IMG/VR virus record: IMGVR_UViG_3300035498_000530
Location: 32,001-96,000 of that record
Strand: one strand, 5' to 3'
DNA length: 64,000 nucleotides
From: a virus
Taxonomy: Duplodnaviria; Caudoviricetes
Position numbers and translations under genes: made by a program. How positions within the stretch are numbered: the first letter of the stretch is position 1; each line of letters opens with the position of its first letter. Shown piece after piece: positions 37,050-60,943 of this stretch. A model generated the notes under the pieces. The model was not told the origin of the DNA and did not search any database. It saw only the letters and a list, made by a program, of their open reading frames with translations.

Positions 37050-38722
37050 TATTCATCCTCCTCAATATTCTTTCCCACAGAAGGTGACTTTAAATATCCG
37101 ATTATACTAGATGCAAATGCTGCGCATTGGGCACCTGATAATTCTTTTGCCTTGGTTTCATAAAAATTTAAAAAAGATAAAGTATTTTTTGCATGATGCT
37201 GTACTCCATCTAAAACTTTGTTTACAAATATTAACATGTCTTCAGCATCTTCTTTAATTGATGATTTTATTACTGAATATAATCTTGATTCTATGTTTTT
37301 CTGAATATGCCTTGGTTCTTCAATTCTATTCTTATCTGGCATATAAAGAATACTTATAAAGAATTCATAGTTATCTTTAAGTCTATATTCTAAATCATAC
37401 TTGAAGAGATAGTCTGCTCTCTGTCTTAAAATAAATTTAATAGCAGAATAGTATGTGTCTTTAAAATCATCTAATAATACCATATTGATAAATCGTATAG
37501 ATTTAGATGATTTTAATTCATATATTGATTCTGTTATATCATTTATAAAAATATTTATAAAATGACTATACTTTAATTTTATTAGCTCATCATCTATATT
37601 ATAGACTGGCTTTTTGAAAAATACAGAATCAATATATCCGTTTAATATACAATTGCTAATATAATTAATTCTTTCTCTAAAGAAATCCACGTAATTATCA
37701 ATGATTTTCATAATACCATCATAGTCTTCTTTATATTTATAATCATAGATATAATATTTATTGATAAATTGTCTTTTGACACTATCCATATCAAATTCTG
37801 CTTTAGAATCTTGTGAATCTGTAGAATTATCAGATTTCTCATTATCAGATAACCAATTTTCTTTTTCTGATATTCTCTTAATCATAGATTGAATATCATT
37901 ACAGATATACTTAATCATATTATATAAAGAAATAGCATCTTTATTTTCTAAGCGTGTTCCATCTGGAACTTTTGTTCTACTATAGACATATTCAAATAAA
38001 TCTTTATCTGTTATAAATCTTTTTTCTTTTATACACTTTGAAAGAATTTCGTCTGCTGCCATTATACTACCATATATCATATCAAAAAACAATGTGTCTC
38101 CACCAAAATAAATATTACAGAAAAGCGTTGCTTTACCGCCTGCAAATCTTCTATAATATTCAGCATCTTCAGAATAGCATGAAATGAGATCATCTAATTC
38201 TTCATCTAGTTCTGTATTGCCTTCATAATCTTTAAGAAGATTTAATGAATGATCATATAATAATTCTGTTGCAATATTGATTATATCATCCATAATACTC
38301 CCTATACTAGGAATACTATTAACGCTTACAGTATCAGGAGATTTATTCGTAGATAAGTAATGTCTAATACAATTATCCTTCTTAGGATCATAGTCTTCTT
38401 CTGACTCTTCTTTACAGAAATTATGTCTTGAGCAAATATATTCATAAAGATCTCCATTATGCCTTATAATACTCTGCATTTCTTGCTCTTGCTTACAGCA
38501 ATAAAATGCTACATTAGCTATATTATGACACATAGAAAATCCTATTTCTGATGCAAATAATGGACCTCTAAATATACTCATTTCATCATTATCTGGAGCA
38601 GTAATAGTTGATACATAATCAAATATTCTATCTGCAGCTCTATCTGGTCTACCTTCATTCATTGCGTCTGTTAAAGCTTCCTCCACTTCAACTCTAAGTT
38701 GATCATAGTTATAGTTTTTCAT
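37049..38722 (-). CDS. Hypothetical early protein
   Basis: AAGGAGG RBS; early motif at 38781. Confidence 0.65.
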   Translation of the reverse strand: MKNYNYDQLRVEVEEALTDAMNEGRPDRAADRIFDYVSTITAPDNDEMSIFRGPLFASEIGFSMCHNIANVAFYCCKQEQEMQSIIRHNGDLYEYICSRHNFCKEESEEDYDPKKDNCIRHYLSTNKSPDTVSVNSIPSIGSIMDDIINIATELLYDHSLNLLKDYEGNTELDEELDDLISCYSEDAEYYRRFAGGKATLFCNIYFGGDTLFFDMIYGSIMAADEILSKCIKEKRFITDKDLFEYVYSRTKVPDGTRLENKDAISLYNMIKYICNDIQSMIKRISEKENWLSDNEKSDNSTDSQDSKAEFDMDSVKRQFINKYYIYDYKYKEDYDGIMKIIDNYVDFFRERINYISNCILNGYIDSVFFKKPVYNIDDELIKLKYSHFINIFINDITESIYELKSSKSIRFINMVLLDDFKDTYYSAIKFILRQRADYLFKYDLEYRLKDNYEFFISILYMPDKNRIEEPRHIQKNIESRLYSVIKSSIKEDAEDMLIFVNKVLDGVQHHAKNTLSFLNFYETKAKELSGAQCAAFASSIIGYLKSPSVGKNIEEDE

Positions 38723-38821
38723 TTTCGTTGTCCTCCTTATTGATCTTATAGTGTATTATATAACTTCTGTTATACAGATCTATAATATATAGTCAAAGCA
38801 TATTTAAATTATAAAAAATAA

Positions 38822-38849
38822 AACCCTAGAGCTATTACACTCTAGGGTT
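38822..38849 (-). terminator. Repeated terminator family AACCCTAG(T/A)..CTAGGGTT (copies 38822, 40441, 41766, 43869, 46676; plus-strand use at 60838)
   Basis: Near-identical stem ACCCTAGTAG/CTACTAGGGT with a TTTATTTTT tail. Confidence 0.8.
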
Positions 38850-38888
38850 ATTATTACAATAATATCAAGACTCATGCTTTGAATCTAT

Positions 38889-40322
38889 TCATTCTTTAAC
38901 ATGATTTTTAATATCAATATCTTTATCTGTAGTACTTGATGTTGGATTATTACTTAAGCCAGCCATACTATTATACAAATCCTGTTCAGATGGATCTACT
39001 ACAGGTTTAGGATCACACTTAGGTCCAGTATATGCAGTATTCTGATTAAAACTATATATGGGTGCTCCATAGTTAAGCTGCTGACCATAGTCAAATGGCA
39101 ACTGCTGATAAGGTTTAAATCCTGGATAATACTGCTGCGGCTGACCATACTGCATATGTGGGGTAAACGGATTCCAAGATTCATTCTTACTAGGATCATT
39201 ACTATAGTATTTTCTCTTATCTTCAAGTATAACCCTACAGCATTTATGCACCTCATTCATTATTCTTTCATCAAATAAATACAATAAAAAGTTCTTTTGA
39301 TTACCTGATAATGACTCGTTATCATATATACTATGTCTTATTTCATCGATTTCAAGTACTACACAAGAAAATGCTTCTACCTTGTTATTATGCTGTATAT
39401 TGATACTTGCATACAAATTAACAGAAATATTAAATAATTTATCGAGATATTCACGTAACCATTCAAAGCTACTTTCATTTTTACAATATTCTGAAAATTT
39501 GTTTTCTATATCATCAAATTCTTTTCTGATATAACCAGGTTTATTTAATGATAATACATAACCAATACAGTCATATGCAATAGAATACCTAGATCCGAGC
39601 AAATTAAAAAGAACAAAATCAAATGATATTTTATTATGCAGTTCTTCTATGAATTCATCATACATTTTCAAATTGAAGTACTCTTTAATAATATCAGGAA
39701 TGCATTTTACTAAATATTCAGTAAATAAGATTTGAGTAGACTCTTTATAATCTGCTAAATCTTTCTCTATATTAATAGCAGTATCCATCCTATAATTTAT
39801 ATGATCCATAAAGTATTCAATCCAGTCAGCGCTATAATTGCTGCATGAAAATGGAAAACGACTTTTTAATGCTATGATTCTGTCATTTAATGAACTTTCT
39901 GAAGAGTTTATACTTGTGCATCCATGATGCATAAAATCTATAGCTAAAAGTTTTTCATAATTACGATCATACATAGAATCATATAAACTCATACCAATCA
40001 ATATATCATGATCGTTGAATCTTAATGAAGAATAAGAATAGATTACTGCAGGATCCAATGATACCATATCTTTTATTTTAGATACAATATAATTAAAAAG
40101 ATCATTAACTTTAGCTATTTTCTTATCCTCCAATGTAATTCTACAATATGATTTTCCATTAGAATCTGGTGTATAGAGCAACAAAGCTACATCTTTTGTA
40201 AATTTCTTATAAATGTCTTGATCATTAACAATATTATCAACCGAATATACTACTTGCTTTTGATCTTGATAAATAAAATCACCCATCTCCATTACTTCGT
40301 TTAAAAGTTCTTTTCTAATCAT
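38889..40322 (-). CDS. Hypothetical early protein, helical family, with Q/Y/P-rich tail
   Basis: Conserved leader cassette upstream; IPDII..YF and S.NQK.FLLY shared with 40503-41642. Confidence 0.65.
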   Translation of the reverse strand: MIRKELLNEVMEMGDFIYQDQKQVVYSVDNIVNDQDIYKKFTKDVALLLYTPDSNGKSYCRITLEDKKIAKVNDLFNYIVSKIKDMVSLDPAVIYSYSSLRFNDHDILIGMSLYDSMYDRNYEKLLAIDFMHHGCTSINSSESSLNDRIIALKSRFPFSCSNYSADWIEYFMDHINYRMDTAINIEKDLADYKESTQILFTEYLVKCIPDIIKEYFNLKMYDEFIEELHNKISFDFVLFNLLGSRYSIAYDCIGYVLSLNKPGYIRKEFDDIENKFSEYCKNESSFEWLREYLDKLFNISVNLYASINIQHNNKVEAFSCVVLEIDEIRHSIYDNESLSGNQKNFLLYLFDERIMNEVHKCCRVILEDKRKYYSNDPSKNESWNPFTPHMQYGQPQQYYPGFKPYQQLPFDYGQQLNYGAPIYSFNQNTAYTGPKCDPKPVVDPSEQDLYNSMAGLSNNPTSSTTDKDIDIKNHVKE

Positions 40323-40468
40323 AGTAGTTTCCTTTCTTGTATCTTAGTAGATACCTATGTATTATTATTTAGCTCAACATAATTGCTATATTATTACTAT
40401 TATAATATGTAACCATATGTACTAAGAATAGCAAAAAATAAACCCTAGTAGAATGAACTACTAGGGTT
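40323..40468 (-). repeat. Early-gene cassette repeat, copy 1 (terminator + early motif + structured leader + AGAAAGGA RBS)
   Basis: Minus strand ACATATTATA...AATATAGCAATTATGTTGAGCTAAATAATAATACATAGGTATCTACTAAGATACAAGAAAGGA. Confidence 0.9.
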
Positions 40469-40502
40469 ATTATTAATCAACAACATTAGTGCTTATGATC
40501 AT

Positions 40503-41642
40503 TTATTTTCTTCCATCATATGATGGAAAATTCTTATCTGGTGCTACAGTATTTAAATTATCCATCCAAGAAGTATTTCTATTATTAAATAAAGCCGCAC
40601 CAGCATCATATGGATTATTAGAATTAGACTCTAATGATGAAACTCTATATTCATCTTTACTTAATGAGAATATAGAATCTTTTATAGATTCGATAAGCTT
40701 TTGAGAAATATATAATAAAAATTCTTTTTCATTCTTAGACATTCTTGATCTTTTAATAGAATCTTCTATATTTTCAATTTCAGAAGAAGCATTTACATAA
40801 TTACGTTTCTTAAATATAGTAAATCGCAAATTATCTTTAATTGAGTCATATGGCATATTAAGTTCTTTACAAGAAGATATAGACTCAAGTAATTTTATTA
40901 TAAATTCATATGATTTTTGTTTTGGCTGGTATGATTCATCAAAGTATTTTGAATATTCATCATCAAATAACTTAAAATACTCATAAGTTTGTTTATCATT
41001 ATTACGACTCTCTAAATTAATCATTAGATCATATATTCTTGAATAATGGGCTGGATTTTGTCTATATAAAAATAAGGTGAATGGTATTTCATCTGTTTTA
41101 TCATCCAGATTATAATTAGCAACATAAGTTGCAAGATAGTATCTAAATATATCTGGTATACTATCATATATAAACTTTGCCAATAGTATATAATTAGGAG
41201 TTTTGCAATCTCCTAAAAATTGTTTAATATCAAACTTTCCCTTAAAAGCATAGCACCATGAACAATTATATATTCTTTCACCATTTGCGCCAGTATAATT
41301 AGTATTATATAAAATACTGTATAATATATCTACTTTATTTACATTAACACCCTGATTATATAAAGATTCAGCATTTAAAAGTTCATAATGCGGTATTTGA
41401 AGATATTTAGTATAAAAATCATCTGATGATCTTATATATTTACTGATTGGATCAATAATCCTATAAAAATCATCATTTATGGTTTTATAATTTGAATTAT
41501 CAAACAAATCTATAGTTGTACCTTCATATAAAGCAATAGTTAAACTACTCATAAATTCATGATATGATCTTTGATTAGAAATGATATCATATAACTTATA
41601 ATTATAATTTTGAGTATTGTTGCAATTTTCTTTCTTGTCCAT
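40503..41642 (-). CDS. Hypothetical early protein, helical family
   Basis: Leader cassette upstream; paralog of 38889-40322. Confidence 0.65.
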   Translation of the reverse strand: MDKKENCNNTQNYNYKLYDIISNQRSYHEFMSSLTIALYEGTTIDLFDNSNYKTINDDFYRIIDPISKYIRSSDDFYTKYLQIPHYELLNAESLYNQGVNVNKVDILYSILYNTNYTGANGERIYNCSWCYAFKGKFDIKQFLGDCKTPNYILLAKFIYDSIPDIFRYYLATYVANYNLDDKTDEIPFTLFLYRQNPAHYSRIYDLMINLESRNNDKQTYEYFKLFDDEYSKYFDESYQPKQKSYEFIIKLLESISSCKELNMPYDSIKDNLRFTIFKKRNYVNASSEIENIEDSIKRSRMSKNEKEFLLYISQKLIESIKDSIFSLSKDEYRVSSLESNSNNPYDAGAALFNNRNTSWMDNLNTVAPDKNFPSYDGRK

Positions 41643-41789
41643 AATTCTTATCCTTTCTTGTATCTTTTAAGATACTTATGTACATATTTATTATTAGCTT
41701 AGTACAATCGCTATATTTTATACTAATATAATATGTGGTTAAATGGCATTTAACAAAAAATAAAACCCTAGTAGTATGAACTACTAGGG
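41643..41789 (-). repeat. Early-gene cassette repeat, copy 2 (diverged loop)
   Basis: AATATAGCGATTGTACTAAGCTA...GTACATAAGTATCTTAAAAGATACAAGAAAGGA. Confidence 0.85.
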
Positions 41790-42325
41790 CTATTACTAAT
41801 CATAATATTAATATTTAAGTATTTACTACCAAATTCTTTTTCTAAATCTTCTAATATTTCATCTAACCATTCCATACGATTGTAAATAGGTGTAACAGGA
41901 TAAGTATTATTATTTTGCTCAATCTCAATAATAGGACTTATAGTAGGAATTAATGTTTTAATAGGTTTCAATTGATTATATTCTTCTGATCTATGAATTT
42001 CAGCTATAACATAGTAATCATAGAATCTATTTTCTCCTATATCATTAGCAGATTCTATAGTAGAATAGTCATCGCCTATATCTATAATCTTAAATCCGTA
42101 TCCATCAATATTGTTCAAGGAACATAGTTTATTAGTAATTCCAATACCAAAATCACTATATCTCCACTTTACATATTCATACTCTATATAATAGTATGGA
42201 GTTTCTTTTCCATTACCACTATAATACTTTATTGTATCTGCATAAGATAACTCTCTATAAAGATTCTTTATCTCTTCAAATGCTTTATTTTCGCATAATA
42301 TTATTACCTGAGATCTGAATCCCAT
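41768..42325 (-). CDS. Hypothetical protein
   Basis: MGFRSQV start with AGAAAGGA RBS; VKW and IGDD motifs common in small phage proteins. Confidence 0.6.
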   Translation of the reverse strand: MGFRSQVIILCENKAFEEIKNLYRELSYADTIKYYSGNGKETPYYYIEYEYVKWRYSDFGIGITNKLCSLNNIDGYGFKIIDIGDDYSTIESANDIGENRFYDYYVIAEIHRSEEYNQLKPIKTLIPTISPIIEIEQNNNTYPVTPIYNRMEWLDEILEDLEKEFGSKYLNINIMISNSPSSSYY

Positions 42326-42837
42326 AATTGATCATCCTTTCTATCTTCATCTTCTTCATAAATTATAGACATTGCTGATTCAATATCAAGACTAAAAATA
42401 TCAGTTTTATCTTGATATATAATTGGATATACAACTACAGACCTAATAACACAATCGTATTCGGGATGAGCATCACTAAATATATCTTTATTATGATTGT
42501 ATAATGCTATTGCTTCTGTTTTTGCTTCGTGCAGTGATGTGTAAATATCAGTACTATGACAAACAAAAGTACCCTGTCTAAATCCATCTACATGAAATAC
42601 TTCTGTAAATTGCCCAAAATAGTAAGTATTTGATTCTGGTTCCAGAAGCATTATAGTTTTAATAGAAGATTCATCATCATCCCATCTATCGGACTCTTTT
42701 AAATACTCTATTAATTTTTCTTTAGACTCAGAGAAACAATCAACAAGTCCATATACATTATTATACATTTTATGATAATGAATATAGAATAACTTTCTTT
42801 TGATTTCTCTTACATTGTCCTTGGTTTCAGCATCCAT
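42304..42837 (-). CDS. SESKE-domain family protein (1 copy)
   Basis: SESKEKLIEYL....L.EPE..YY...IY.S..EA. Confidence 0.65.
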   Translation of the reverse strand: MDAETKDNVREIKRKLFYIHYHKMYNNVYGLVDCFSESKEKLIEYLKESDRWDDDESSIKTIMLLEPESNTYYFGQFTEVFHVDGFRQGTFVCHSTDIYTSLHEAKTEAIALYNHNKDIFSDAHPEYDCVIRSVVVYPIIYQDKTDIFSLDIESAMSIIYEEDEDRKDDQLWDSDLR

Positions 42838-42839
42838 AT

Positions 42840-43751
42840 TTAATCATCCTTTCTATTATATCCAGTTGTAAAATAATTGTAACGTTGAAAATGATAAATG
42901 CCATCTTCTTTGAATTTAACGCTTCTGTATAAATATATACATTTATACATATACTCGACTCTTTCATATCTAGAATCGCATTTACCATAAAAATTATCCA
43001 TAATCCTTTTGGTATCCTTTATTGCTTCTCTATATGAAACATATATGGTTGGAGACCAAGCGCTAACAATAGGATCATCATCTTCACTAGTATTTGAATA
43101 CCAATGGCTTTCTGTAATAAAATATGATGATGATTCTGGAACTCTTATAGTACTTATATAGCTATCATTATAATAACCATCAATATTATTACGTTTATCT
43201 GTAAGATACTCTATTAATTTTTCTTTAGATTCTGACATTACTCTGCATGCATCTCTAAAATAAATATAAAAAGTTTTAATTTTATTATCATCTACATTAT
43301 CATCGTAATCCAGGAGTTCAATATTACTATCTTCATAATAGTCTCCAATTTCTTCAGAATGAACTTTAGATATTATAATAACAGTTTTATATGCTTCCTT
43401 TCCTTCCTTAAAATGATTATTATACAATTCATTAGATTTGACTTTTGCATAATCATAATCTGTATATACATTATCATAATAGTTCAAAGCATCACAATTA
43501 TCAGAACATATTGTATTCCAATAAACTGCCTCTGTATATCCTGACTGATAATAAGTTTCAGCTTCAGGAAGATATATTGTTTCTACAATAGGATTATCCA
43601 CACACTGCAGAAGATTTGATACTTGATCTTCTGATTTGCATATAAATCTCACTCGCCTACCAGAAACAACATTAATTCCCTTTTCATATATTGCATAAAG
43701 CATCTCTACGCAATTATTCTTTATTGGATTGGTTTTTCTTTCTTCTTCCAT
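42840..43751 (-). CDS. SESKE-domain family protein (2 copies)
   Basis: Tandem domains; leader cassette upstream. Confidence 0.65.
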   Translation of the reverse strand: MEEERKTNPIKNNCVEMLYAIYEKGINVVSGRRVRFICKSEDQVSNLLQCVDNPIVETIYLPEAETYYQSGYTEAVYWNTICSDNCDALNYYDNVYTDYDYAKVKSNELYNNHFKEGKEAYKTVIIISKVHSEEIGDYYEDSNIELLDYDDNVDDNKIKTFYIYFRDACRVMSESKEKLIEYLTDKRNNIDGYYNDSYISTIRVPESSSYFITESHWYSNTSEDDDPIVSAWSPTIYVSYREAIKDTKRIMDNFYGKCDSRYERVEYMYKCIYLYRSVKFKEDGIYHFQRYNYFTTGYNRKDD

Positions 43752-43894
43752 AATTTGTCCTTTCTTGTACTTATTGTACTTATGTATTATTTAATGACTC
43801 AACATAATTGTCATATTATACAAATCTATAATATATAGTCATATGGTATTTAAATTATAAAAAATAAAACCCTAGTAGAATGAACTACTAGGGT
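43752..43894 (-). repeat. Early-gene cassette repeat, copy 3
   Basis: AATATGACAATTATGTTGAGTCATTAAATAATACATAAGTACAATAAGTACAAGAAAGGA. Confidence 0.9.
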
Positions 43895-43902
43895 ACTTTT
43901 AT

Positions 43903-44334
43903 TTAGTCTTCGATAGTGCTTATAGTTTCAAGAACATAAGCATCTTCTCCTCTGCCTTTGATAAGCATATATAATGTTTTCTCTGATGATTGCAATTCAT
44001 ATGTCTGATTTTGTCTGCAAAACATACCTTTATTATTTCTATAAAGATCTTCAAGATTCTCTTTAGATTTAGTAGATAATATGCAGATATTTCCATAATA
44101 TGGAATAAATTTTTCGTCTCCTTCATCATTAGAGACCCATTCAGCATATTCAGCTTGATAATATGCATCTTGTTCTGGAAGTCTCAAAGTTATTAATCTT
44201 TTATTAATATCTTCTTGATTCTTCCATCTTTTGCTTATATATTGATATACTAGTTCTTTTGACTCAGACATGTATCTTACAAGGCCTCCGTCATTATAAG
44301 CATAAAATATCTTTGAATTTCTATCAAATAACAT
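43903..44334 (-). CDS. SESKE-domain family protein (1 copy)
   Basis: MSESKELV...LRLPEQDAYYQAEYAEW. Confidence 0.65.
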   Translation of the reverse strand: MLFDRNSKIFYAYNDGGLVRYMSESKELVYQYISKRWKNQEDINKRLITLRLPEQDAYYQAEYAEWVSNDEGDEKFIPYYGNICILSTKSKENLEDLYRNNKGMFCRQNQTYELQSSEKTLYMLIKGRGEDAYVLETISTIED

Positions 44335-44336
44335 AA

Positions 44337-45218
44337 TTAGTTATCCTCTTTTCTTATTACTTTACTAAGACTCTTATAGTTGTTAAGACAATAAAAGCCG
44401 TCTCCATCTTCTTCATATGAATATATAGTCACGTTACCAAAAAGATATTTGTATTTATTAGAAGTAATTTTATTATCTTCATAAATATCAAATGCTCTTC
44501 TTTCTGCTTCAGCGGCTGATAAACAAACGTTAGTATTATAAGATTTAGACATAACAGGATTTTTACCAAAACTAAACCATTCTTCATAGCATCCTATATA
44601 ATAAATATCACTACTTGGAAGTTTCAATTCAATTATTGCATCTTTATTGATGTTATTCCAACTTGATATTTCACTAATAAGATCTTCTTTAGACTCTGAC
44701 ATTATTCTTATTACACCCTGTTCAACATAAGCATAAATCGTTTTAAAATCTTTATTATCAGTATCCTTTTTATCATCTATATATTCAGTATTAGTAACTG
44801 CATAGTATTCCCCAATATAGCGAGTATTTACTTTGGATATTGTGTTTATTACATTATATGACTCTACTCCTTCTTTAGAATGATCATTATATAATCTTTC
44901 ACCATCCATTACAGCATCATTATAGTTTGCATATACATCACCATAATATTCAATAGTATCACGAACATAATCTCTATTTACTTTACGATAAATTACTTCA
45001 TGATATCCCGCCTGATAATATACATCTGATTTTTGAAAGTGGAGTTTCATAGCACATAAATTTTTATTTCTCAACAGTTTAAATGCCTGATCCTCTGAAT
45101 CACTTAAATATTTGATTTTAAAGTGACCTTCTGATAATGAATAACGTACTACATAATCATCTTTAGTTTCATTTGCATTTTCGTTTTCATTAACTTTCAT
45201 TTCTTCATTTTCTTCCAT
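44337..45218 (-). CDS. SESKE-domain family protein (2 copies)
   Basis: Paralog of 42840-43751; leader cassette upstream. Confidence 0.65.
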   Translation of the reverse strand: MEENEEMKVNENENANETKDDYVVRYSLSEGHFKIKYLSDSEDQAFKLLRNKNLCAMKLHFQKSDVYYQAGYHEVIYRKVNRDYVRDTIEYYGDVYANYNDAVMDGERLYNDHSKEGVESYNVINTISKVNTRYIGEYYAVTNTEYIDDKKDTDNKDFKTIYAYVEQGVIRIMSESKEDLISEISSWNNINKDAIIELKLPSSDIYYIGCYEEWFSFGKNPVMSKSYNTNVCLSAAEAERRAFDIYEDNKITSNKYKYLFGNVTIYSYEEDGDGFYCLNNYKSLSKVIRKEDN

Positions 45219-45360
45219 AATCTTGTCCTTTCTTGTACTTATTGTACTTATGTATTATTATTTAGCTCAACATAATTGCCATATTATTATACAGATCTAT
45301 AATATATAGTCAAAGTATATTTAAATTATAAAAAATAAAAGACTGCCATAAGACAGTCTT
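45219..45360 (-). repeat. Early-gene cassette repeat, copy 4
   Basis: AATATGGCAATTATGTTGAGCTAAATAATAATACATAAGTACAATAAGTACAAGAAAGGA; different terminator (AAGACTG/CAGTCTT). Confidence 0.9.
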
Positions 45361-45374
45361 TATTTATTAATCAA

Positions 45375-46553
45375 TCAGTAATGTACATTATACATATTCT
45401 CATAATCCCGAACAATACTATCCATGAAAATTAATTTTTTCTTTTCTTTGTTTAAATATGTATTATTATTAAAATACAACTTATCATACATCTCATCAGA
45501 AATTGTATCTTTGATTGATTCTTCATATTCTTTCATTACCCTATAGCACTCCTTATAAAGTTCTATTAATCCCTTTCTAATACCAGAATTATAATCTTTA
45601 TCAAAAAGACTAATGTTTGATATAATATAAATCATTTCATCAATAAACTTTGTCATATCTTCAAAATTAACCCTATTTATTATTACAGGCATTGAATTTT
45701 CTGATGATGGCTGCTTTACTACATATCTATGATGCTTATAAATCAATATAGCCTCAACCAATGCGTATATATATGTCAGCATAGCATTTAAAGACTCTTC
45801 ATCATGTAAACCACGACTTTCATTAAAATAACTCTGTATTTTGTTAGCATCTATTGTAGGTTTTGGTTTATTGTTTAATGAAAAAGGATCATAGTAATCT
45901 GGTGCTGGATGCATTATAGTATTGTATATATCAGTATGCTCAGATTCTGATATTTCAATATATGAATGAAAACTAATAACCCATTTAAAATTAAGCGGAT
46001 TTCTCTTAGTAAATTTCTCAAATATATTATCAAAATGTATATGTATATATCTTTGAATAATACTAGGAGCCATGTATGCAAAGATTGACATAAAAGCGGC
46101 AGAAGAATTAGTTATTTCATCTTTCTTATAATTTTCATAATTTCTTATATTGGTATATCTAATATTATTTGGATTGATCAAATTACGAGCTATATTAGTA
46201 TAGAATATATTGGATCGATTATCATTTATCAATCTATCCTGTAAATAATTAAAAAATCCATCAGGATCACGATAATTAGATTTATTGTATTCATAGTGGT
46301 ATCTAATAAATTCATCATCTGAAACAGAATACAGCATTTTAAACTCTTTAGAATCCACATTATCTTTAATAGTATTTATAAATTCTATAAAATAATTATA
46401 AACTATTGGATCATCAGACATATATGGTTCTACGTACTTCCAAATACTGTCTACATCATTTTTACGATATATCATATTTGCAATATCTCGTGTAAATTTG
46501 TAATACAGTGTTGAACTTGTCATGATACTAAAAATAGTTTTCTTTTCTTCCAT
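45375..46553 (-). CDS. Hypothetical early protein, helical family
   Basis: Leader cassette upstream; Y.KFT.D.A..Y and P.II..Y shared with 38889-40322. Confidence 0.65.
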   Translation of the reverse strand: MEEKKTIFSIMTSSTLYYKFTRDIANMIYRKNDVDSIWKYVEPYMSDDPIVYNYFIEFINTIKDNVDSKEFKMLYSVSDDEFIRYHYEYNKSNYRDPDGFFNYLQDRLINDNRSNIFYTNIARNLINPNNIRYTNIRNYENYKKDEITNSSAAFMSIFAYMAPSIIQRYIHIHFDNIFEKFTKRNPLNFKWVISFHSYIEISESEHTDIYNTIMHPAPDYYDPFSLNNKPKPTIDANKIQSYFNESRGLHDEESLNAMLTYIYALVEAILIYKHHRYVVKQPSSENSMPVIINRVNFEDMTKFIDEMIYIISNISLFDKDYNSGIRKGLIELYKECYRVMKEYEESIKDTISDEMYDKLYFNNNTYLNKEKKKLIFMDSIVRDYENMYNVHY

Positions 46554-46700
46554 AATCTTATCCTTTCTTATATCTTCTTAAGATACCTATGTATTATTTA
46601 ATGACTCAACATAATTGTCATATTATTATACTACTATAATATATAATCATGTATACTAAAAATAACAAAAAATAAAACCCTAGTATTAATTACTAGGGTT
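46554..46700 (-). repeat. Early-gene cassette repeat, copy 5
   Basis: AATATGACAATTATGTTGAGTCATTAAATAATACATAGGTATCTTAAGAAGATATAAGAAAGGA. Confidence 0.9.
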
Positions 46701-46710
46701 ATTATCTTGT

Positions 46711-47253
46711 TTAAACTGATTCTTTTTCAGTTAATAATCTTAATCTGATTTCTCTCATCTTATCTGCACTCAACTCAGGTTTAGAATAACTGCTTATATT
46801 TATATTATCAAATAATCCAATAGCAAGTTGTAAATCTTGTTCATAAGTATATTCATCTTTTTCAATATCAGATTGGTACTTCTCTTGGTTGTGCACATGA
46901 TGTTCCTTAAGAAGTATTAATGTAATCCCTCTTAAAACATTTTCAACTATATTACCATAAATAATATGATAATCGCTAGGTAAATTTTCTTTAACTTTAC
47001 TTACAAGAATATTATGTAATTTAGTTATGCCTTCATCTGTAAACATATCATCAATGTTTCTATCTTTTGACAAATAATGAAAAATATATAATTCCTTTAA
47101 TCTATTTTCATAAATCTCAATAGTATTATTGATACATTGTTCTACTTCAGCCTTGATATATTCATCAAAATTAATTTGTTCAGTTAATCCACGTCTAATA
47201 CGTTCAATTGATTCTTCGCTTAATTTTCCATTACACATGTTTTCTTTATTCAT
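46711..47253 (-). CDS. Hypothetical early protein (start corrected to 47253)
   Basis: AGAAAGGA RBS of cassette copy 6 lies before the ATG at 47253. Confidence 0.6.
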   Translation of the reverse strand: MNKENMCNGKLSEESIERIRRGLTEQINFDEYIKAEVEQCINNTIEIYENRLKELYIFHYLSKDRNIDDMFTDEGITKLHNILVSKVKENLPSDYHIIYGNIVENVLRGITLILLKEHHVHNQEKYQSDIEKDEYTYEQDLQLAIGLFDNINISSYSKPELSADKMREIRLRLLTEKESV

Positions 47254-47403
47254 AACTTTTTCCTTTCTTGTACTCATTTGTACCTATGTATTATTATTTA
47301 GCTCAACATAATTGCTATATTATTATACTACTATAATATGTAATCATTGTAATTATATTTAACAAAAGATATCCCTAAGGAATTTACTATGTTCCTTAGG
47401 GAT
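47254..47403 (-). repeat. Early-gene cassette repeat, copy 6
   Basis: AATATAGCAATTATGTTGAGCTAAATAATAATACATAGGTACAAATGAGTACAAGAAAGGA; terminator of second family ATCCCTAAGGAA/TTCCTTAGGGAT (related copies near 19746 and 57847). Confidence 0.9.
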
Positions 47404-47409
47404 AAATGT

Positions 47410-47742
47410 TTAGTCGTCTTTAAATGCTACATTTAGAATTCTTAGTCTTACTGTCTCATAATACTTAATAAGCATATTTTTTCCATATCTTACTTCCATG
47501 GTTTCAATATCTTCTATAAATTTTCTTTTTACGTTATATATGATTCTGTTAGCAACAGATTCATCTAATCCAAAATCTCTAGCTAATATCATTAGTTCTC
47601 TATCCTGAGATTTAAAATCATGTGTAGTCATAGAGTTTAACTTCTCTTGAGAATATGACATATTAGCTCTTTTATTTTTATCATAATATTGATCTGGTCC
47701 GTATGTATAATCATATTGAATTGAACCATAATGGGTCGACAT
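47410..47742 (-). CDS. Hypothetical protein
   Basis: GGAGGT RBS; last gene of the tmk-thyX operon. Confidence 0.55.
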   Translation of the reverse strand: MSTHYGSIQYDYTYGPDQYYDKNKRANMSYSQEKLNSMTTHDFKSQDRELMILARDFGLDESVANRIIYNVKRKFIEDIETMEVRYGKNMLIKYYETVRLRILNVAFKDD

Positions 47743-47744
47743 AC

Positions 47745-48200
47745 TTATACCTCCGATGTGTTATTTTCGACTATCAAGTCAGTTACTCCTAAATATATGT
47801 AATGAGCAATTATATCAAATGGATCACTAAAATACATAAATAATACAGTTAATATCTGATCTGATATTCTATATTTAACACGACTGAGGACTTGCTTTCG
47901 AAGATCCATTTCATCTTCTTCTGTAAGATATTCTTTATTCTGAATCGTCGTAGGATTCAATATTAATACTTCTTTTATAGATTCATCTACAATAAGCTTT
48001 ATATATTCTATAGTATTCTTATATCCTTGAACTATATCAAGCTGAGATACCATAGTATTAGATGTATATATAGCTTTTCTCTCAAAGAATAATGAGATAA
48101 GAGCTTTTCCAATGAAGTACATTCCTGTATATAATATTACAAAGAATACTATCATCATAATAGCCATAAATATCTGGTAATTAAGCATCGTATATGTCAC
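47745..48200 (-). CDS. Hypothetical membrane protein
   Basis: N-terminal TM; EYIK..VDE.I...L...V.S.VK resembles 46711-47253. Confidence 0.55.
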   Translation of the reverse strand: MTYTMLNYQIFMAIMMIVFFVILYTGMYFIGKALISLFFERKAIYTSNTMVSQLDIVQGYKNTIEYIKLIVDESIKEVLILNPTTIQNKEYLTEEDEMDLRKQVLSRVKYRISDQILTVLFMYFSDPFDIIAHYIYLGVTDLIVENNTSEV

Positions 48201-49341
48201 CTCCTAATGATCTTATGTATGGAGTTAATACTTTATCTAAAGACAAAGCATACTTTCTTATCTCATCCTGAGCATGTGGATCTGTTCTTAACTCTATAAA
48301 CTTCTTATAATTACCCAAAGTCATAGTCATATACAATTCATAACAGTTTGTATTATTAAGAAGTACTGCTCTAGCATCTTCTTTTTTAATACCCTGTGAT
48401 ACTAAATTTGAATAATTATTAGTAGCATTGTAAAAGAGAAGATTACATAACTGACTGAATTCGAATTCTCCTTCAAGACCTTCAACACTATATAACTGTC
48501 CTTTATAAGCATCCGGATTAGGAACAGTAAATGAAGCATGAGAAGAATCTACATATCTCTGACTCTGCTGAGTAATACCATTTCTATGTCTTACTAATTG
48601 ATGAGTTGCTGTTCTAGAAGCATTAATGAATCTTACAGTTACAGTACTAGTATTAAGTATATCAAGTGGAAGATTTCTATATCTATTATTAGATATCTCA
48701 GAAAATGTAGTATCTCCTGATATAATCTCTACATACTTATCATCTACACCAAATAACTTCTTTCCTTCTTCTTTCAATTCTTCATTAAGCTTCTCTATAT
48801 CTTCTGGACTATATGTATTCAAGCTATCTGACTCTGAAAATACATCAAATTCACTAATCGGGAATGTTTCTGCATAATCAACAGATCCAAATAAATCTTT
48901 TCCCCATGATGTATTTTCTATTATAGCTATAAGCATTTCTTCTATAATTAAGCATATTGAATCATCATCATATAACTTTGAATCTGCATATACCATATTA
49001 AATAAATGGATATATCCTCTAATAGATCCACTTATAATAATAGATGCTAACAAATCTTCATTCTCATAAGAATAATCCTTCAACTGGAATACGTTAAGAT
49101 ATTTACAATATGTAAGTAATGTAATTATATCTTCCAAACACAAAGCATAAGAGATATCAACTCTCATAGATATATTAGAGTGCTCTAATACGCTAGTATG
49201 ACCACTCTTTATTCTTCTCTTAATATAATCAAGTTTACCTTCTCTATCCTCAGGTAATTTAGTATTATAGCATGATGAGCATGCCTTACTACAAATATCA
49301 ACAGCATCATTATATCCTAAAATCTCTATATCTACACACAT
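48181..49341 (-). CDS. thyX: FAD-dependent thymidylate synthase ThyX (long form)
   Basis: GHTSVLEH, THQLVRHR, QQSQRYV, EDAR.VL, HAQDEIR. Confidence 0.92.
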   Translation of the reverse strand: MCVDIEILGYNDAVDICSKACSSCYNTKLPEDREGKLDYIKRRIKSGHTSVLEHSNISMRVDISYALCLEDIITLLTYCKYLNVFQLKDYSYENEDLLASIIISGSIRGYIHLFNMVYADSKLYDDDSICLIIEEMLIAIIENTSWGKDLFGSVDYAETFPISEFDVFSESDSLNTYSPEDIEKLNEELKEEGKKLFGVDDKYVEIISGDTTFSEISNNRYRNLPLDILNTSTVTVRFINASRTATHQLVRHRNGITQQSQRYVDSSHASFTVPNPDAYKGQLYSVEGLEGEFEFSQLCNLLFYNATNNYSNLVSQGIKKEDARAVLLNNTNCYELYMTMTLGNYKKFIELRTDPHAQDEIRKYALSLDKVLTPYIRSLGGDIYDA

Positions 49342-50145: not shown

Positions 50146-50283
50146 TAAACAAAGGAGCGCCCAGTAGACCGATCCTACTGGGCATAATTTGTAACAATAC
50201 ATACAAGAAAGGTTTAATGGAAATCTTATATTCCAACTTATGAAACTTAAGGGACATTTATGGACAATATTTTATTGACCCTC
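50146..50283 (-). ncRNA. Candidate late antisense sRNA C (~138 nt)
   Basis: AACA-TATAAG-TG at 50294-50283; stem GCCCAGTAG/CTACTGGGC 50159-50183; complementary to early-gene RBS/start regions. Confidence 0.6.
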
Positions 50284-50863: not shown

Positions 50864-53800
50864 TTATTGTAACTTCTTTTCATGAAGCATTGGTTCGTAT
50901 TTAATACCCATTATATCTTTTACAGACCTTGCCAATTCTACAAGAACTTTATTTATACCACCAGATACTTCAATAGAACATACCATTCTACTACTTACTG
51001 AAAGTGTAGATAAGAATAAGTCTATTGGTTCTTCTGGTCTGAATGAACTATATGGTTCTTTTCCTTCTGGGAATATATCTTTACAAACAGCTTTAAGAGC
51101 TGACTGAGTAACAAGCTTATCACCTACAGAGAAGTCATCTTGGTACTTAATGTAAAATTCAATCTTAACACCATCTGAAGTATCCTTTAATTTACCAGTT
51201 GGAGCAAGTTTTTCATCTGAACCAAAGTTTGGAGTTACAGCATAATCATTAACAGATCCTTTAGCTGCTTTCTTTAATTTCTTAACTCCAGATTCATAAG
51301 AATTACATATCTTCTTCAATGAAGGAGATAATTCTTCTGTATCTACAGTTCTATATACTTTAATATCTTGTACAATACCGGTATTCTTAGACTTTATAGG
51401 AATTCTACCGATATCTGATACTATTTCTTCATCATCAGAAAGTTGTTTAAGAAGAGCATTCATATCATCTTCATCAAATGTATTCTGGAATAATATGAGT
51501 GTTTCGCCTTCCTGAATATTCTGTCCTTTCTTTACCATAGATAATACATTTGTCGTCTTAGGTAAAGTTACTTCTTTCTTTACTACTACATCTGAAGACA
51601 ATGCTTTAGATAACCATGGTGATACAATACCAGAGTCTTCATAACCTTCATCTGTAGTTATAATAGCTACTTTAGCAAGAGTACCTATCTTATATCCTAT
51701 ACTATTAGGATTTCCTATTTCATTGGAATATGATGATTTATCATATGCTAATATCTGATTTGGTTTTACTTTAGATCCTTTCTTTAAGTCAGAATCTAAC
51801 TTAAGAGTTACATAGAAACCACCATCAGAGTTCTTTTCAACTCTTTCTCTAAGATCTATAAACTCTGTTGTATTATTATTATATTTCACTTTAAGATATT
51901 CTGGAGTTGCTTCTATTACTTCTCCAGCACCTTTAGCCTTATGAGCAAATATATCTGTAGTCAAATATGGTAATGCTTCGTCTGCACCATTGGTAATCAA
52001 TGCAGGAGAAGATTTTCTAACTCTCATACCATGTTTTGCTGTCTGTACAAATGTCATAGCAGATCTAAATGGATCATCATGCGTAGTACCAAATGGAGTA
52101 AGTGCTTCTGTCATACACATAGATTTAACACTACCCATATCTTCTTTAGATCCAGATTTTAAATATCCTCTACTATTACCAACACCCATATCTATAGTAG
52201 CCTGTCTAGTAATACCTACATTGCCAGCAAAACCAGTAGACATAGCTAATACATTTGTCATTGAATCGTCAAACGTACGTTTATCAAGACCATAGCTTCT
52301 TTCTGAGTTCATACCAGATAATCCCTTAAAGGTTACTGCATTAGAAGTCTCTATTTCAAGAAGTGGTGTAAGAATAGATGCATCTGCCATCGTAGGATCA
52401 AGCATTACAAGATCTATTACAGCAGACTGTTTCATAGTCATAGGAGCTTTTTTAGTTCTCTTTAATTGATTTCTATAAGCACCATATGATTGTGCTAAAG
52501 CTTTATATACATAACCAGCAACAATTTCATTCTTTCTAAATCTATTACCAGATATATCTACATGCTTATTATATTTATTATCAGTAAGTAATCCATTAGC
52601 ATAAGCCAATGCTGTTACATAATCTGACGGTAAATCAAAGTCTTTACATACAGATACCGTTATAGGATCCATCATCAAATCATAGAAGTTATCAAGACCA
52701 TCTGCTTTAATTCTTCCACCAAAGTTATCTAACTGTTCTACCCATGTAGATTTCTTATTAAGATCTGCTATACTCATTTCATTAGTATCACATATTCTAA
52801 GACCATTCATAAGAAGATCTGCACTTGCTGTTGATTCATAATATAATAAACCATCTTTAAATTTGATTTTATCATACATACTAGTTTCAAAGTCAGGATT
52901 CTTCTTTTCAAAAAGTCTATAATTTATATTAGCTTTATTAAGAGCTGATACCAATCCTTCAGCATGAGCCATAACTACTATAGTTGGTATCTTTGAATCA
53001 AGAATACTACAAACTGAATAAGCACAGTTGCTTGGTGCTGAAGTATCATCATAATCTCTTTGGAATTCTTCGCTAGATTGACATAATAAGTTAACTAAAT
53101 ATGTTGAGAATCTATCTCCAGATTCTTGACCAAAATATAATAACTTACTATTCTCTTTAGTGTAAACAACTGGAATACCATATTTTAAATCATACTTATA
53201 ATTCTTTCTGATCTCATCTTGGTTAAGATATATAATAAAATCTTTAGTTTCAATTTTACTAAATGCTCTTCCTATATCTACATAATCCATTGGAAGATCG
53301 TATTTAATAGATATCTTTTCTGTATTACCTTCGGTAGCATCAATATCTTTATATCTATTCTTTGTAAGAAGCTTAATTACTTTATTAGCAGCTACATTAG
53401 ATTTACCAACAGAATTATTTTGTATCTGCAAGAAAATCTTATTATAGTTTGATACAATTTGGCATACATCTGGGTCTGTTTTTATTATTGGTAATAATAA
53501 TAATTGACCCTGGATTGATTTTAGGTTGCCTCTGAGCCTCATAAACTGATTGTCTACGAACAGTGGAACGTCAAATTTGAGCTTGAAGCGCTGTCCAAGT
53601 GCATCTTCACAGTCAAGTGTCCAAGTCTCTATTAAATCCTCAGATGTGGATGTATTTTGTACATCCATAGATCTAACCACTACAGGTATAGTTTTATCTT
53701 TAAAGCTATTTATAATCTTTACAATATCTTCATTTATATCATAAGTCTCATTAAATTTAGCATAACTAAGATGTTTCCATTCTTCATTAATACTATCCAC

Positions 53801-55363
53801 AGGAACAGAAGTTTCTTTAATCTCTTTAGGTTTATCTTCTTCAAGATAATCTTTTACTGTTTTATTATGGACTTTAATATTATCAAAAGATTTACCTACT
53901 TCAGATAATCTCTTACTTCGAGCAGCATTTATCTTAATAGTATTTTCTTCATCTTCTGATACTGTATCCATAATTTTAGATATATATTCATTATTAGATA
54001 ATTTATCTACAGCATCTTCTACAGAATTACTAGAATTAGCCACAGCTTTAATATTATCCAATAATTCTTCCTTAAGTTCATCAGATATTTCTTTCTTAGC
54101 TTTAGTTTCATTCTTATTAATATTTGTAGTTTTTTCTGGTCTTGCTTTCTTTACACTTGTTTGCTTTTTATTATCTGGAGACATAGAAAGTACTGATATT
54201 TCTTTTGGCTTAATTGTTCCAGATTTACCAGTAAGTCCTTTATACTTAATTGGTCTTTCATTATTTTCAAGACTATCAGTAATAGTTGCAATAATAACTT
54301 TTGGAGAATCTGTATCTGGGTCTCCTAAATCATCTGTATTTGCATCTTTTGCTATTACTCTTTTTATAAGATTAATGAACTTTATAGATTTAGTTTTATC
54401 AAAGTCTTTAAAATCCATCTTAAAGTAATTATTTTCTCCTACGAAGATTATATTAAATCCTTTAAGGGTTTCTTGGACATGTTCTGGATATCTATAAGCC
54501 ATTCTTATTATAACTGATACTGGATTAATAGTTTTCTTATAATCCCACATATTACCATTCTTAATATTCCAATCCAATATAGGAATAAATATAGTTTTAT
54601 GTGTATATCCATATTGATCATATCTGCCATCATTAAGAAGTCTTATCATAAAATCATAATAAAGCTGTACAGCTTTGTCAGCTTTCCAGAAATTATTCTT
54701 AAAGAATGCTTCAGTATAATATGATAAATCAGCAAATAAGTTAAGTCCTTTATATAATTTAAGATTACTAAAAGTCTTCATTATAAATGGACATTCAGCT
54801 TTAACCTCTTTGTATATATCAAATACATTCTTATTAGTTTTAAGTCTTTCATTATATAATAACTTTCTTAATTGTGTATCATTCTTACCGTCTTCGGTTA
54901 AATATGCATCTCTAAATATAGTAATAGCATTTCTTCCTCTGAGATATTCATCTGTCATTTCACAATCTTTAGATATAAATGTAGGTCTATAATCTATATC
55001 TTCATTTACAGATTCTACATTATTTATTATATCTGAATTATATAATAAATCTTCAACAGATTCTTCTAATTCTACCGATTCAGAATCTGGATATAATATA
55101 TTATATCTATTATCTACTGGAGCAGATTCCTGTAGATAATTCTTACTGTTTATATAATAAGTAACATCTTTATCAAGATAGTAAGCCTGATAAGATTTTG
55201 CTCTATTTATAAACATTGGATTTTTCATAAGATTAATACTAGATTTAAAATTTGGAGTCAATAAGTAAATCATAGCACCATGTTTCTTATCATTCTCGTT
55301 TATTGGTAATAAGCATTTCTTCTTAAGTAATTTATTTGGAATTACTTCATCTAAAAATAGCAT
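50864..55363 (-). CDS. rpoB: Phage multisubunit RNA polymerase beta subunit (large part) with N-terminal extension
   Basis: NVGITRQ, PFGTTHDDPFRSAM..Q..H, GYEDS, GDKL....KAV, SVSSRM; ends shortly after SRM, so the extreme beta C-terminus is absent; late motif AACT-ATAAAA-TA at 55399-55388. Confidence 0.92.
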   Translation of the reverse strand: MLFLDEVIPNKLLKKKCLLPINENDKKHGAMIYLLTPNFKSSINLMKNPMFINRAKSYQAYYLDKDVTYYINSKNYLQESAPVDNRYNILYPDSESVELEESVEDLLYNSDIINNVESVNEDIDYRPTFISKDCEMTDEYLRGRNAITIFRDAYLTEDGKNDTQLRKLLYNERLKTNKNVFDIYKEVKAECPFIMKTFSNLKLYKGLNLFADLSYYTEAFFKNNFWKADKAVQLYYDFMIRLLNDGRYDQYGYTHKTIFIPILDWNIKNGNMWDYKKTINPVSVIIRMAYRYPEHVQETLKGFNIIFVGENNYFKMDFKDFDKTKSIKFINLIKRVIAKDANTDDLGDPDTDSPKVIIATITDSLENNERPIKYKGLTGKSGTIKPKEISVLSMSPDNKKQTSVKKARPEKTTNINKNETKAKKEISDELKEELLDNIKAVANSSNSVEDAVDKLSNNEYISKIMDTVSEDEENTIKINAARSKRLSEVGKSFDNIKVHNKTVKDYLEEDKPKEIKETSVPVDSINEEWKHLSYAKFNETYDINEDIVKIINSFKDKTIPVVVRSMDVQNTSTSEDLIETWTLDCEDALGQRFKLKFDVPLFVDNQFMRLRGNLKSIQGQLLLLPIIKTDPDVCQIVSNYNKIFLQIQNNSVGKSNVAANKVIKLLTKNRYKDIDATEGNTEKISIKYDLPMDYVDIGRAFSKIETKDFIIYLNQDEIRKNYKYDLKYGIPVVYTKENSKLLYFGQESGDRFSTYLVNLLCQSSEEFQRDYDDTSAPSNCAYSVCSILDSKIPTIVVMAHAEGLVSALNKANINYRLFEKKNPDFETSMYDKIKFKDGLLYYESTASADLLMNGLRICDTNEMSIADLNKKSTWVEQLDNFGGRIKADGLDNFYDLMMDPITVSVCKDFDLPSDYVTALAYANGLLTDNKYNKHVDISGNRFRKNEIVAGYVYKALAQSYGAYRNQLKRTKKAPMTMKQSAVIDLVMLDPTMADASILTPLLEIETSNAVTFKGLSGMNSERSYGLDKRTFDDSMTNVLAMSTGFAGNVGITRQATIDMGVGNSRGYLKSGSKEDMGSVKSMCMTEALTPFGTTHDDPFRSAMTFVQTAKHGMRVRKSSPALITNGADEALPYLTTDIFAHKAKGAGEVIEATPEYLKVKYNNNTTEFIDLRERVEKNSDGGFYVTLKLDSDLKKGSKVKPNQILAYDKSSYSNEIGNPNSIGYKIGTLAKVAIITTDEGYEDSGIVSPWLSKALSSDVVVKKEVTLPKTTNVLSMVKKGQNIQEGETLILFQNTFDEDDMNALLKQLSDDEEIVSDIGRIPIKSKNTGIVQDIKVYRTVDTEELSPSLKKICNSYESGVKKLKKAAKGSVNDYAVTPNFGSDEKLAPTGKLKDTSDGVKIEFYIKYQDDFSVGDKLVTQSALKAVCKDIFPEGKEPYSSFRPEEPIDLFLSTLSVSSRMVCSIEVSGGINKVLVELARSVKDIMGIKYEPMLHEKKLQ

Positions 55364-60830: not shown

Positions 60831-60943
60831 ACAGAGTACCCTAGTAGTATGAACTACTAGGGTTTATTTTTTGTATAATAGTAATTTTATCAATATATTA
60901 TAACTATGTATTAAATATATTTATCTTAAGGAGGATAATAAAA

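Follow-up and report, generated by a model that had tools for sequence, protein, structure and literature searches.

Bases 32001-96000 of the 222,731-bp virus record IMGVR_UViG_3300035498_000530, which carries direct terminal repeats and has 30% GC, make up the 64,000-nucleotide window analyzed here. Within it, six genes on the minus strand are each preceded by a copy of one structured 5′ leader. This six-copy repeat, with the features listed in a preliminary description of the sequence, is confirmed, and the interpretation offered there is partly supported. We hold, with slightly better than even confidence, that the repeat is an early expression cassette whose 5′ untranslated region (5′UTR) serves as an RNA-level control module for the post-transcriptional co-regulation of an early regulon. 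The 5′UTR of such a cassette would be a cis-acting RNA element common to six ORFan-encoding transcription units.

Six leader copies and their two hairpins

Aligning the regions upstream of the six genes reproduced every sequence detail of the preliminary description, with all of them falling on the minus strand. The gene starts given there (40322, 41642, 43751, 45218, 46553 and 47253) are minus-strand ATGs. For copy 6, the start is the ATG at 47253, preceded by a Shine-Dalgarno (SD) sequence, as that description had it, and not the position 47277 chosen by the open reading frame (ORF) finder, an ATG that lies inside the loop of the second hairpin and lacks an SD. An nhmmer search for all genomic copies returned exactly these six leaders in 222,731 bp, and a gapped pattern matched six times in the genome against 0.00 expected. 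No second copy of the first stem-loop, sense or antisense, was found elsewhere in the genome, where a blastn-short sweep gave low-complexity AT matches only. The leaders are single and dispersed, one per intergenic spacer, and lie 697-3425 bp apart.

Copy 1 (40323-40395, 73 nt) runs from a predicted +1 A at 40395 to the ATG at 40322-40320, with the SD AGAAAGGA at 40330-40337. Copy 2 (41643-41721, 79 nt) is the most diverged and has its predicted +1 A at 41721, its SD at 41651-41658 and its ATG at 41642. Copies 3 (43752-43821, 70 nt) and 4 (45219-45292, 74 nt) are predicted to begin with G, at 43821 and 45292, and have SDs at 43758-43765 and 45226-45233 before ATGs at 43751 and 45218. The GUAU that opens copy 3 at +1 is able to pair with an AUAC, forming a helix around the first stem. 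Copies 5 (46554-46629, 76 nt) and 6 (47254-47326, 73 nt) are predicted to begin with A, at 46629 and 47326, with SDs at 46561-46568 and 47261-47268 and ATGs at 46553 and 47253. Pairwise identity among the leaders is 62-87%, while the first 150 coding nucleotides show 57% identity against a shuffled baseline of 54%. By this comparison of sequences the leader is conserved beyond neutrality; part of its uniformity may stem from exchange among the copies.

Each leader contains two hairpins. Stem 1 (S1), of 4-5 bp, is formed by UAGC/GCUA in copies 1 (40370-40388), 2 (41695-41713) and 6 (47299-47317), by AUGAC/GUCAU, with two pairs swapped on both sides, in copy 3 (43794-43814) and again in copy 5 (46601-46621), and by UGGC/GCUA, a G·U intermediate, in copy 4 (45263-45281). 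Its 11-nt loop is AAUUAUGUUGA in five of the six copies and GAUUGUACUAA in copy 2. Hairpin 2 (HP2), of 4-7 bp, stands directly 5′ of the SD, abutting AAGAAAGGA without covering the SD, and comes in two sequence types. GUAUCU pairs with AGAUA(C/U) in copy 1 (40339-40354, GUAUCU-ACUA-AGAUAC), copy 2 (41660-41675, GUAUCU-UAAA-AGAUAC) and copy 5 (46570-46586, GUAUCUU-AAG-AAGAUAU, with a closing G·U). GUAC pairs with GUAC in copy 3 (43767-43779) and copy 4 (45235-45247), both GUAC-AAUAA-GUAC, and in copy 6 (47270-47283, GUAC-AAAUGA-GUAC). The stem 1 variants and the HP2 swap are as first described. S1 types and HP2 types occur in all four combinations among the copies, which indicates that the copies recombine while each stem stays matched within itself.

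RNAalifold, applied to the leader alignment, predicts exactly S1 and HP2, and the two stems are paired in 100% of alignment cells. Three pairs have changed on both sides, two adjacent ones in S1 and one in HP2. Two further changes are single-sided, from A-U to G·U in copy 4 and from G-C to G·U in copy 5; both would be C·A mismatches on the opposite strand or in DNA and are tolerated on the sense RNA only. None of 500 column shuffles reaches the observed pairing or covariation score, a control that is inflated by the relatedness of the sequences (independent compensatory events number only about 3-5), and partners slid out of register are 15-46% paired. HP2 has a predicted stability of -3.0 to -5.4 kcal/mol, with z of -2.5 to -6.3 against shuffles in four variants covering both sequence types: copy 1 (-5.4 kcal/mol, z -2.95), copy 3 (z -6.3), copy 5 (z -2.5) and copy 6 (z -3.4). 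Taken together, the pairing of S1 and HP2 appears moderately in excess of chance. Thus, the proposal that structure is under selection at the RNA level is plausible for S1 and HP2, given the compensatory changes and the sense-only G·U pairs; it does not extend to the pairing of the S1 loop with downstream sequence, which is at chance level.

Terminator, early promoter and predicted start

The leaders belong to intergenic cassettes of 125-180 bp that consist of an intrinsic terminator, an early promoter, the 70-79-nt 5′UTR, the 8-nt SD and the ATG. A promoter block, A[T/C]ATATTAT-N6-R+1, is invariant in the six copies and in a seventh, promoter-only copy. The early consensus of the AR9 virion RNA polymerase (RNAP) is AAATATATATTAT-N6-G+1 (PMC5312081), and the invariant block matches its core, with the start 6 nt downstream. 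The matching cores are ACATATTAT at 40402-40410 in copy 1 and, in copies 2-6, the minus-strand positions 41728-41736, 43828-43836, 45299-45307, 46636-46644 and 47333-47341. The genes that the preliminary description called early thus carry an early-type promoter, which by analogy with AR9 suggests early timing. By the same analogy, transcription is predicted to start at the purine 7 nt after TATTAT, which is G in copies 3 and 4 and in the promoter-only copy and A in copies 1, 2, 5 and 6. S1 begins at +8 to +12 from this predicted start, which therefore lies upstream of stem 1 and would place the stem within the transcript. A start downstream of stem 1, named in the preliminary description as refuting evidence, is thus not what the promoter predicts. 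The combination of early motif, purine, SD and ORF occurs about 32 times in the genome.

The likeness to AR9 extends to the core ATATATTAT, the 6-nt spacing to a purine start, the split RNAP homologs and the late motif AACA-N6-T[AG] (Lavysh et al. 2017, PMC5312081). Unlike in AR9, the predicted +1 is A and not G in four of the six copies, and a shared structured leader is not described in the AR9 paper (PMC5312081). The late motif stands 22-59 nt before plus-strand virion genes, and with both motif classes found, the phage shares both AR9 promoter classes. Late motifs precede many virion or structural genes on the plus strand in 1-27000, for example at 19, 2854, 4027, 4690, 7572, 9239, 13232, 23464 and 26190. 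In the six leader-bearing spacers, the late motif is absent on either strand, and an antisense late promoter inside the leader was dropped as a candidate on that ground. A mini-ORF in the S1 loop, AUG-UUG-AGC-UAA, was also dropped; it has no SD and is missing from copy 2.

The promoter-only copy, detected by nhmmer at 38775-38825 on the minus strand, reads TTGACTATATATTAT-AGATCT-G+1 with the G at 38775 and precedes an ORF ending at 38722. It resembles copy 4 up to +6 and has no similarity beyond, continuing into an unrelated 53-nt leader with a 7-bp hairpin at +1. Promoter and leader are thus separable modules.

Terminator-like sites were counted 12 times, where 1.3 would be expected, in each case immediately before a promoter. 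The intrinsic terminator of the preceding unit lies at 40441-40468, before the copy 1 promoter, and further minus-strand terminators lie at 41764-41791, 43869-43894, 45338-45361, 46676-46700, 47370-47404 and 38822-38849. Near-identical terminator hairpins (AACCCTAGTAG...CTACTAGGGTT plus a T-run) occur at 40441-40468, 41764-41791, 43869-43894, 46676-46700, 38822-38849 and 60829-60888. This terminator family recurs between early units, with one further member at about 60.8 kb, and matched changes preserve its stem in the variants.

Hairpins near the 5′ end are also predicted outside the six leaders. Among 25 other predicted early transcripts with an AR9-type promoter and G at +1, positions +1 to +3 lie inside a hairpin in 10, against 4.0 ± 1.8 in shuffles, none of 300 of which reaches 10. 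Examples start at 38775(-), 57017(+), 92835(+), 180174(-), 175411(-) and 183731(-). In three relatives (G001-G003), ATATATTAT-N6-G is followed immediately by a perfect 10-bp hairpin. It seems that early messages of this phage generally have a stem-loop at the 5′ terminus.

A late antisense candidate and competing explanations

A further component of the favored explanation is an ORF-less unit at 50147-50283 on the minus strand, with the late motif AACA-TATAAG-TG, a +1 at about 50283 and a terminator, which may specify a small RNA (sRNA). The centre of this unit, UUUCCAU...CCUUUCUUGUAUGUAUUGUUAC, is complementary to the leader linker, the SD and AUGGAA; the AUGGAA start context occurs in three copies, where it is part of the complementarity. 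Read on the plus strand, the unit resembles an inverted, decayed leader of the copy 3/4 type together with its start codon (GTAACAATACATACAAGAAAGGTTTAATGGAAATC). Targets were ranked by seed-limited duplex energy and by the free-energy change on cofolding (ddG), since full-length duplexfold adds up to large energies over any long AU-rich sequence and is therefore uninformative. Among 203 ribosome-site regions, copies 3 and 4 rank first and second by seed-limited duplexes. By cofold ddG, which counts intramolecular structure, the six leaders rank 1, 2, 3, 7, 23 and 27 of 203 (mean -7.4, standard deviation 4.0, best -22.9). The best predicted partners of the candidate are leaders 3, 4 and 5. Only one of 18 late non-coding sites prefers the leaders, and it is the 50147-50283 unit. 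Two further late-type units stand in tandem at about 50591 and 50838 and show no leader preference.

Two forms of complex are predicted. In copies 1, 2, 5 and 6, S1 and HP2 stay folded, and HP2 is extruded between two intermolecular helices that the sRNA forms with its invariant flanks (AAUAAUACAUA and AAGAAAGG), creating a three-way junction. In copies 3 and 4, the intermolecular pairing continues across HP2 itself. In these models, the sRNA target offers an alternative reason for the invariant ACAUA that the preliminary description had assigned to a pseudoknot, and the modeled pairing suggests why HP2 is constrained in shape and not in sequence.

The favored explanation combines these elements as follows. 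Firstly, HP2 and the 8-nt SD, which we take to be a perfect complement of a Firmicute-type 16S 3′ end, would together give strong, unoccluded ribosome loading. Secondly, S1 would present its conserved loop to a putative trans-acting factor, either protein or RNA. Finally, the invariant flanks of HP2 (AAUACAUA and AAGAAAGG) and, in three copies, AUGGAA would serve as the landing site of the sRNA made from the late promoter, and this RNA, in appearance an inverted and decayed leader copy, would bind the early messages and shut them off late in infection through an effect on translation or decay. Gram-positive 5′ stabilizers such as the ermC/aprE-type 5′-terminal hairpins, the cryIIIA STAB-SD and the polypurine stabilizer of phage SP82 early RNA are comparable in combining upstream hairpins with an SD that is strong, extended and complementary to the 3′ end of 16S rRNA, and many other early messages of this phage are predicted to open with a hairpin right at +1. 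In four of the six copies, however, S1 begins 8-10 nt inside the predicted transcript, too far for a classical 5′-terminal protector, and a stabilizer leaves the invariant 11-nt loop unexplained.

An extended form of this explanation, which we put forward only tentatively and consider doubtful as a whole, is that the leader is a new phage cis-regulatory RNA in a self-derived leader/anti-leader shut-off circuit for virion-polymerase transcripts. A factor made by the phage would recognize the S1 loop, either by itself or in a knot with the A-rich linker, HP2 would join its invariant flanks into the landing site of the late sRNA, and the sRNA would have arisen by inversion of a leader copy.

Several observations weigh against RNA-level control by the leader. 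The pairing with the sRNA is strong for three copies only, and that of copies 1 and 2 does not stand out (z about -1.3). S1 by itself, at -1.7 to -2.8 kcal/mol (-2.0, with z about 0, in copy 1) and z of 0 to -0.6, is indistinguishable from shuffled sequence, and whole-leader folds have minimum free energies (MFEs) that are not unusual (z -0.04 to -1.1). The 5′ flank could instead pair with the S1 loop, in a helix with which the alignment is 96% compatible, AU-rich sequence being permissive. The region is 100% identical in four other samples and so offers no microdiversity, and no leader homolog was found in any collection searched, so that the covariation rests on six copies. JGI samples 3300035499, 3300043104, 3300043077 and 3300043078 contain the phage. 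These six are related and recombining, which limits the independent compensatory events to about 3-5 and puts R-scape-type significance out of reach. Gene conversion between repeats could maintain their likeness without selection, and templated mutation at a quasi-palindrome could produce matched arm changes without any RNA function. The start site, early timing and expression of the sRNA all rest on analogy with AR9.

In one competing account, the repeat is a PeSL-like cassette for recombination and expression only. Promoter-early stem-loop (PeSL) cassettes are known from T4-type phages (Arbiol et al. 2010, PMC2839356; Comeau et al. 2014, PMC4122927), and here, too, a unit made of a terminator stem-loop and an early promoter recurs in a plastic region, in the spacers of small early ORFan genes, with copies recombining in both systems (PMC4122927). 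Under this account, the copies would resemble one another through concerted evolution and through the needs of promoter, terminator and SD, and S1 and HP2 would be incidental. The mosaic of S1 and HP2 types fits exchange among copies, the stability of S1 is at shuffle level and AU-rich sequence allows many alternative helices. However, homology continues for more than 70 nt beyond the start, up to the ATG, a stretch that the promoter-only copy shows to be unneeded for the promoter. In addition, pairing is preserved at each of the five variable stem positions, among them two neighboring pairs exchanged on both arms, 15 nt apart, and HP2 has above-chance stability in each of the four variants examined, which represent both sequence types. 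We regard a cassette devoid of RNA function as unlikely. The cassette also differs from PeSLs in its AR9-type virion-RNAP promoter, where PeSLs have sigma-70 promoters (sigma-70-like sites are not enriched here), and in adding a conserved leader of 70-79 nt, which contains two hairpins with compensated changes and a loop that is invariant.

The preliminary description had also raised a possible H-type pseudoknot, in which the S1 loop pairs with downstream sequence (S2). The complementarity it reported is present in all six copies: loop UUAUGU faces ACAUA(A/G), as in ACAUAG at 40355-40360 of copy 1, and in copy 2, where both partners have changed, UGUAC faces GUACA at 41679-41683, created by a 4-nt insert. 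The pair U18-R49 alternates between U-A and U·G, the nested MFE structures of copies 2 and 6 contain the S2 helix in place of S1, and the geometry is sterically acceptable, with loops L1 of 2-3 nt, L2 of 3 nt and an A-rich L3 of 8-11 nt. A pseudoknot is thus geometrically possible, yet the S2 complementarity appears to be at chance level. Shuffled linkers contain equal or longer loop complementarity in 13-31% of cases with Watson-Crick pairs and in 42-49% with G·U pairs included. For copy 2, the figure is 15% by shuffling, and under a model of random 4-nt insertion, 14% of trials recover 5 bp or more. Read in register, none of the S2 pairs has changed on both sides, and copy 2 breaks two of them and requires a 2-nt shift. 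A rough pknotsRG-style estimate gives the knot -1 to -3 kcal/mol, which is no improvement on nested folds of the same segment (-2 to -4 kcal/mol), and the late-sRNA target explains the invariant ACAUA equally well.

The pseudoknot was proposed as a protein-bound translational operator or enhancer in the style of T4 gene 32. In that system, a pseudoknot in the mRNA leader mediates translational autoregulation by gp32. Both leaders have a small 5′-proximal structure followed by an A/U-rich unstructured tract before the ribosome site, and an H-type topology can be drawn for the present leader on paper. In contrast to gene 32, one element serves six genes here, the second helix is at chance level, and the proteins encoded downstream are different ORFans, none of which matches single-stranded DNA-binding proteins, a poor fit to autoregulation. 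We consider a pseudoknot operator quite unlikely, and control through S1 and HP2 does not need one.

An explanation at the level of DNA is very improbable. The repeat would then contain a nested host sigma-A-type promoter (TTGAG(C/T)-N18-TACAAT/TATCTT, overlapping S1 at its 3′ arm and HP2 at its 5′ arm) or the operator of a regulator. Copies 3 and 4 do present TTGAG(T/C)-18-TACAAT with 9 of 12 consensus positions, and a sigma-70-like reading further upstream, TTGACT-16-TATAAT, is possible in three copies with 10-11 of 12. Across the sequence, however, sigma-70-like sites number 79 against 83 expected in shuffled DNA; copies 1 and 6 have poor -10-like hexamers, and copy 2 has no -35 left. Two half-site spellings in one genome are a misfit for one dimeric protein, and the G·U-type changes would be mismatches at the DNA or antisense level. 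Transcription in AR9-type phages is, moreover, independent of the host RNAP (PMC5312081).

The two hairpins just 3′ of the early promoters, and the strong terminator after every unit, also invite comparison with antitermination. In a put-like or nut-like mechanism, the nascent hairpins would modify the virion RNAP so that it reads through the terminators between units. The put RNA of HK022 is a cis-acting antiterminator and likewise places two hairpins in the nascent early transcript just after the early promoter. Its stems are far longer and meet in a tight junction, whereas those of the leader are short and separated by a 16-20-nt spacer; the polymerase is another one, each unit here has its own promoter directly after the terminator, making read-through unnecessary, and we know of no antitermination of jumbo-phage RNAPs. 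We find this mechanism scarcely credible. The type III antitoxin also raised in the preliminary description is rejected: ToxI shares with the leader a small repeated RNA, pseudoknot potential and a phage-related context, but ToxI consists of tandem repeats of about 36 nt just before its toxin gene, whereas the leader copies are non-tandem, one per spacer, and no ToxN/AbiQ/CptN-like protein was found downstream by Pfam, PHROG or PADLOC, where the only match was weak and AbiEi-like, over 40 residues of the 477-aa protein encoded behind leader 1.

Genome setting, relatives and significance

The window encodes pieces of a multisubunit RNAP of the jumbo-phage type at 50864-55363(-), 18079-19629(-) and 27304-28533(+), which are split, phage-encoded homologs of beta and beta′ (PHROG 3148/14872, 2987 and 2962; E 1e-62 to 1e-134). 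By tblastn, the named phages that come closest to the 1499-aa subunit are Listeria phage LPJP1, Bacillus phages PBS1 and Goe21 and S6-type Staphylococcus phages, at about 30% identity. On this sequence evidence, the uncultured phage is placed in the AR9/PBS1 branch of the phiKZ-like jumbo phages. Megablast against known phages matched nothing, and no tRNA is present in the window. The host is probably a low-GC Gram-positive bacterium, as judged from the phage relatives and SD usage. A ThyX-type thymidylate synthase domain (PHROG 85; Pfam Thy1) is encoded at 48181-49341(-), just upstream of the early cluster, and hints at thymine DNA, not the uracil DNA of AR9 and PBS1.

The proteins downstream of the leaders are ORFans that lack a Pfam or PHROG family, and the genes include two paralog sets (27-38% amino-acid identity) along with unrelated genes. 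The 477-aa protein behind leader 1 (38889-40322(-)) and the 379-aa protein behind leader 2 are paralogs with 28% identity. The former has a weak 40-residue match to the winged-helix region of AbiEi (PADLOC E 0.0016). Five early ORFans at 41768-45218(-), of 185, 177, 303, 143 and 293 aa, are built from one or two copies each of a single domain of about 140 aa with the motif SESKE...TI.LPES..YY. AlphaFold2 models of these five proteins reach a predicted local distance difference test score of 90.7 at best and 56-74 in the other four, and the domain model has no neighbor in the PDB (best Foldseek E 0.12; best VIA Z 3.9).

Searches for relatives of the leader returned chance matches at most. Among viral contigs, neither a strict pattern nor a gapped pattern fitting all six copies had any match, and the gapped pattern gave four chance matches in metagenomes and one in genomes, in a Clostridia metagenome-assembled genome. 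A covariance model run on five relatives with 41-47% RNAP identity recovered non-homologs only (E 0.36-0.96), and the surroundings of the RNAP gene in the same five contain no multi-copy leader. Rfam cmscan of 38000-48000 at E ≤ 1 assigned no family and gave sub-threshold matches on terminator hairpins only. For the downstream proteins, two viral scans were empty and two word-index searches found self matches only, and an exhaustive HMMER profile search of the 140-aa domain recovered the phage's own five paralogs and one spurious eukaryotic repeat protein. A relative of 252 kb has, at G004:C1:162530-162750(-), one gene with a 10-bp hairpin that abuts AAGAAAGGA and whose outer five pairs, GUAUC...GAUAC, are those of the first HP2 type, with no S1. 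Judged by sequence, this hairpin is possibly a distant echo of the HP2-SD module.

The leader is a new sequence family, for which the closest known systems are PeSLs at the level of the cassette and AR9 early promoters at the level of the promoter. What is new with respect to both is the combination of a phage multisubunit polymerase with a long leader containing compensated hairpins. The modular terminator-promoter design of T4-type phages thus exists around a phage multisubunit polymerase as well, extended here by a structured leader. The promoter, leader and 8-nt SD may also be of practical use as a compact natural expression module for low-GC Gram-positive settings. To our knowledge, nothing is known of post-transcriptional control of early messages in AR9/phiKZ-type phages, and a leader common to six units, with a candidate late antisense partner, provides a concrete and testable handle on how early genes may be shut off in these phages.

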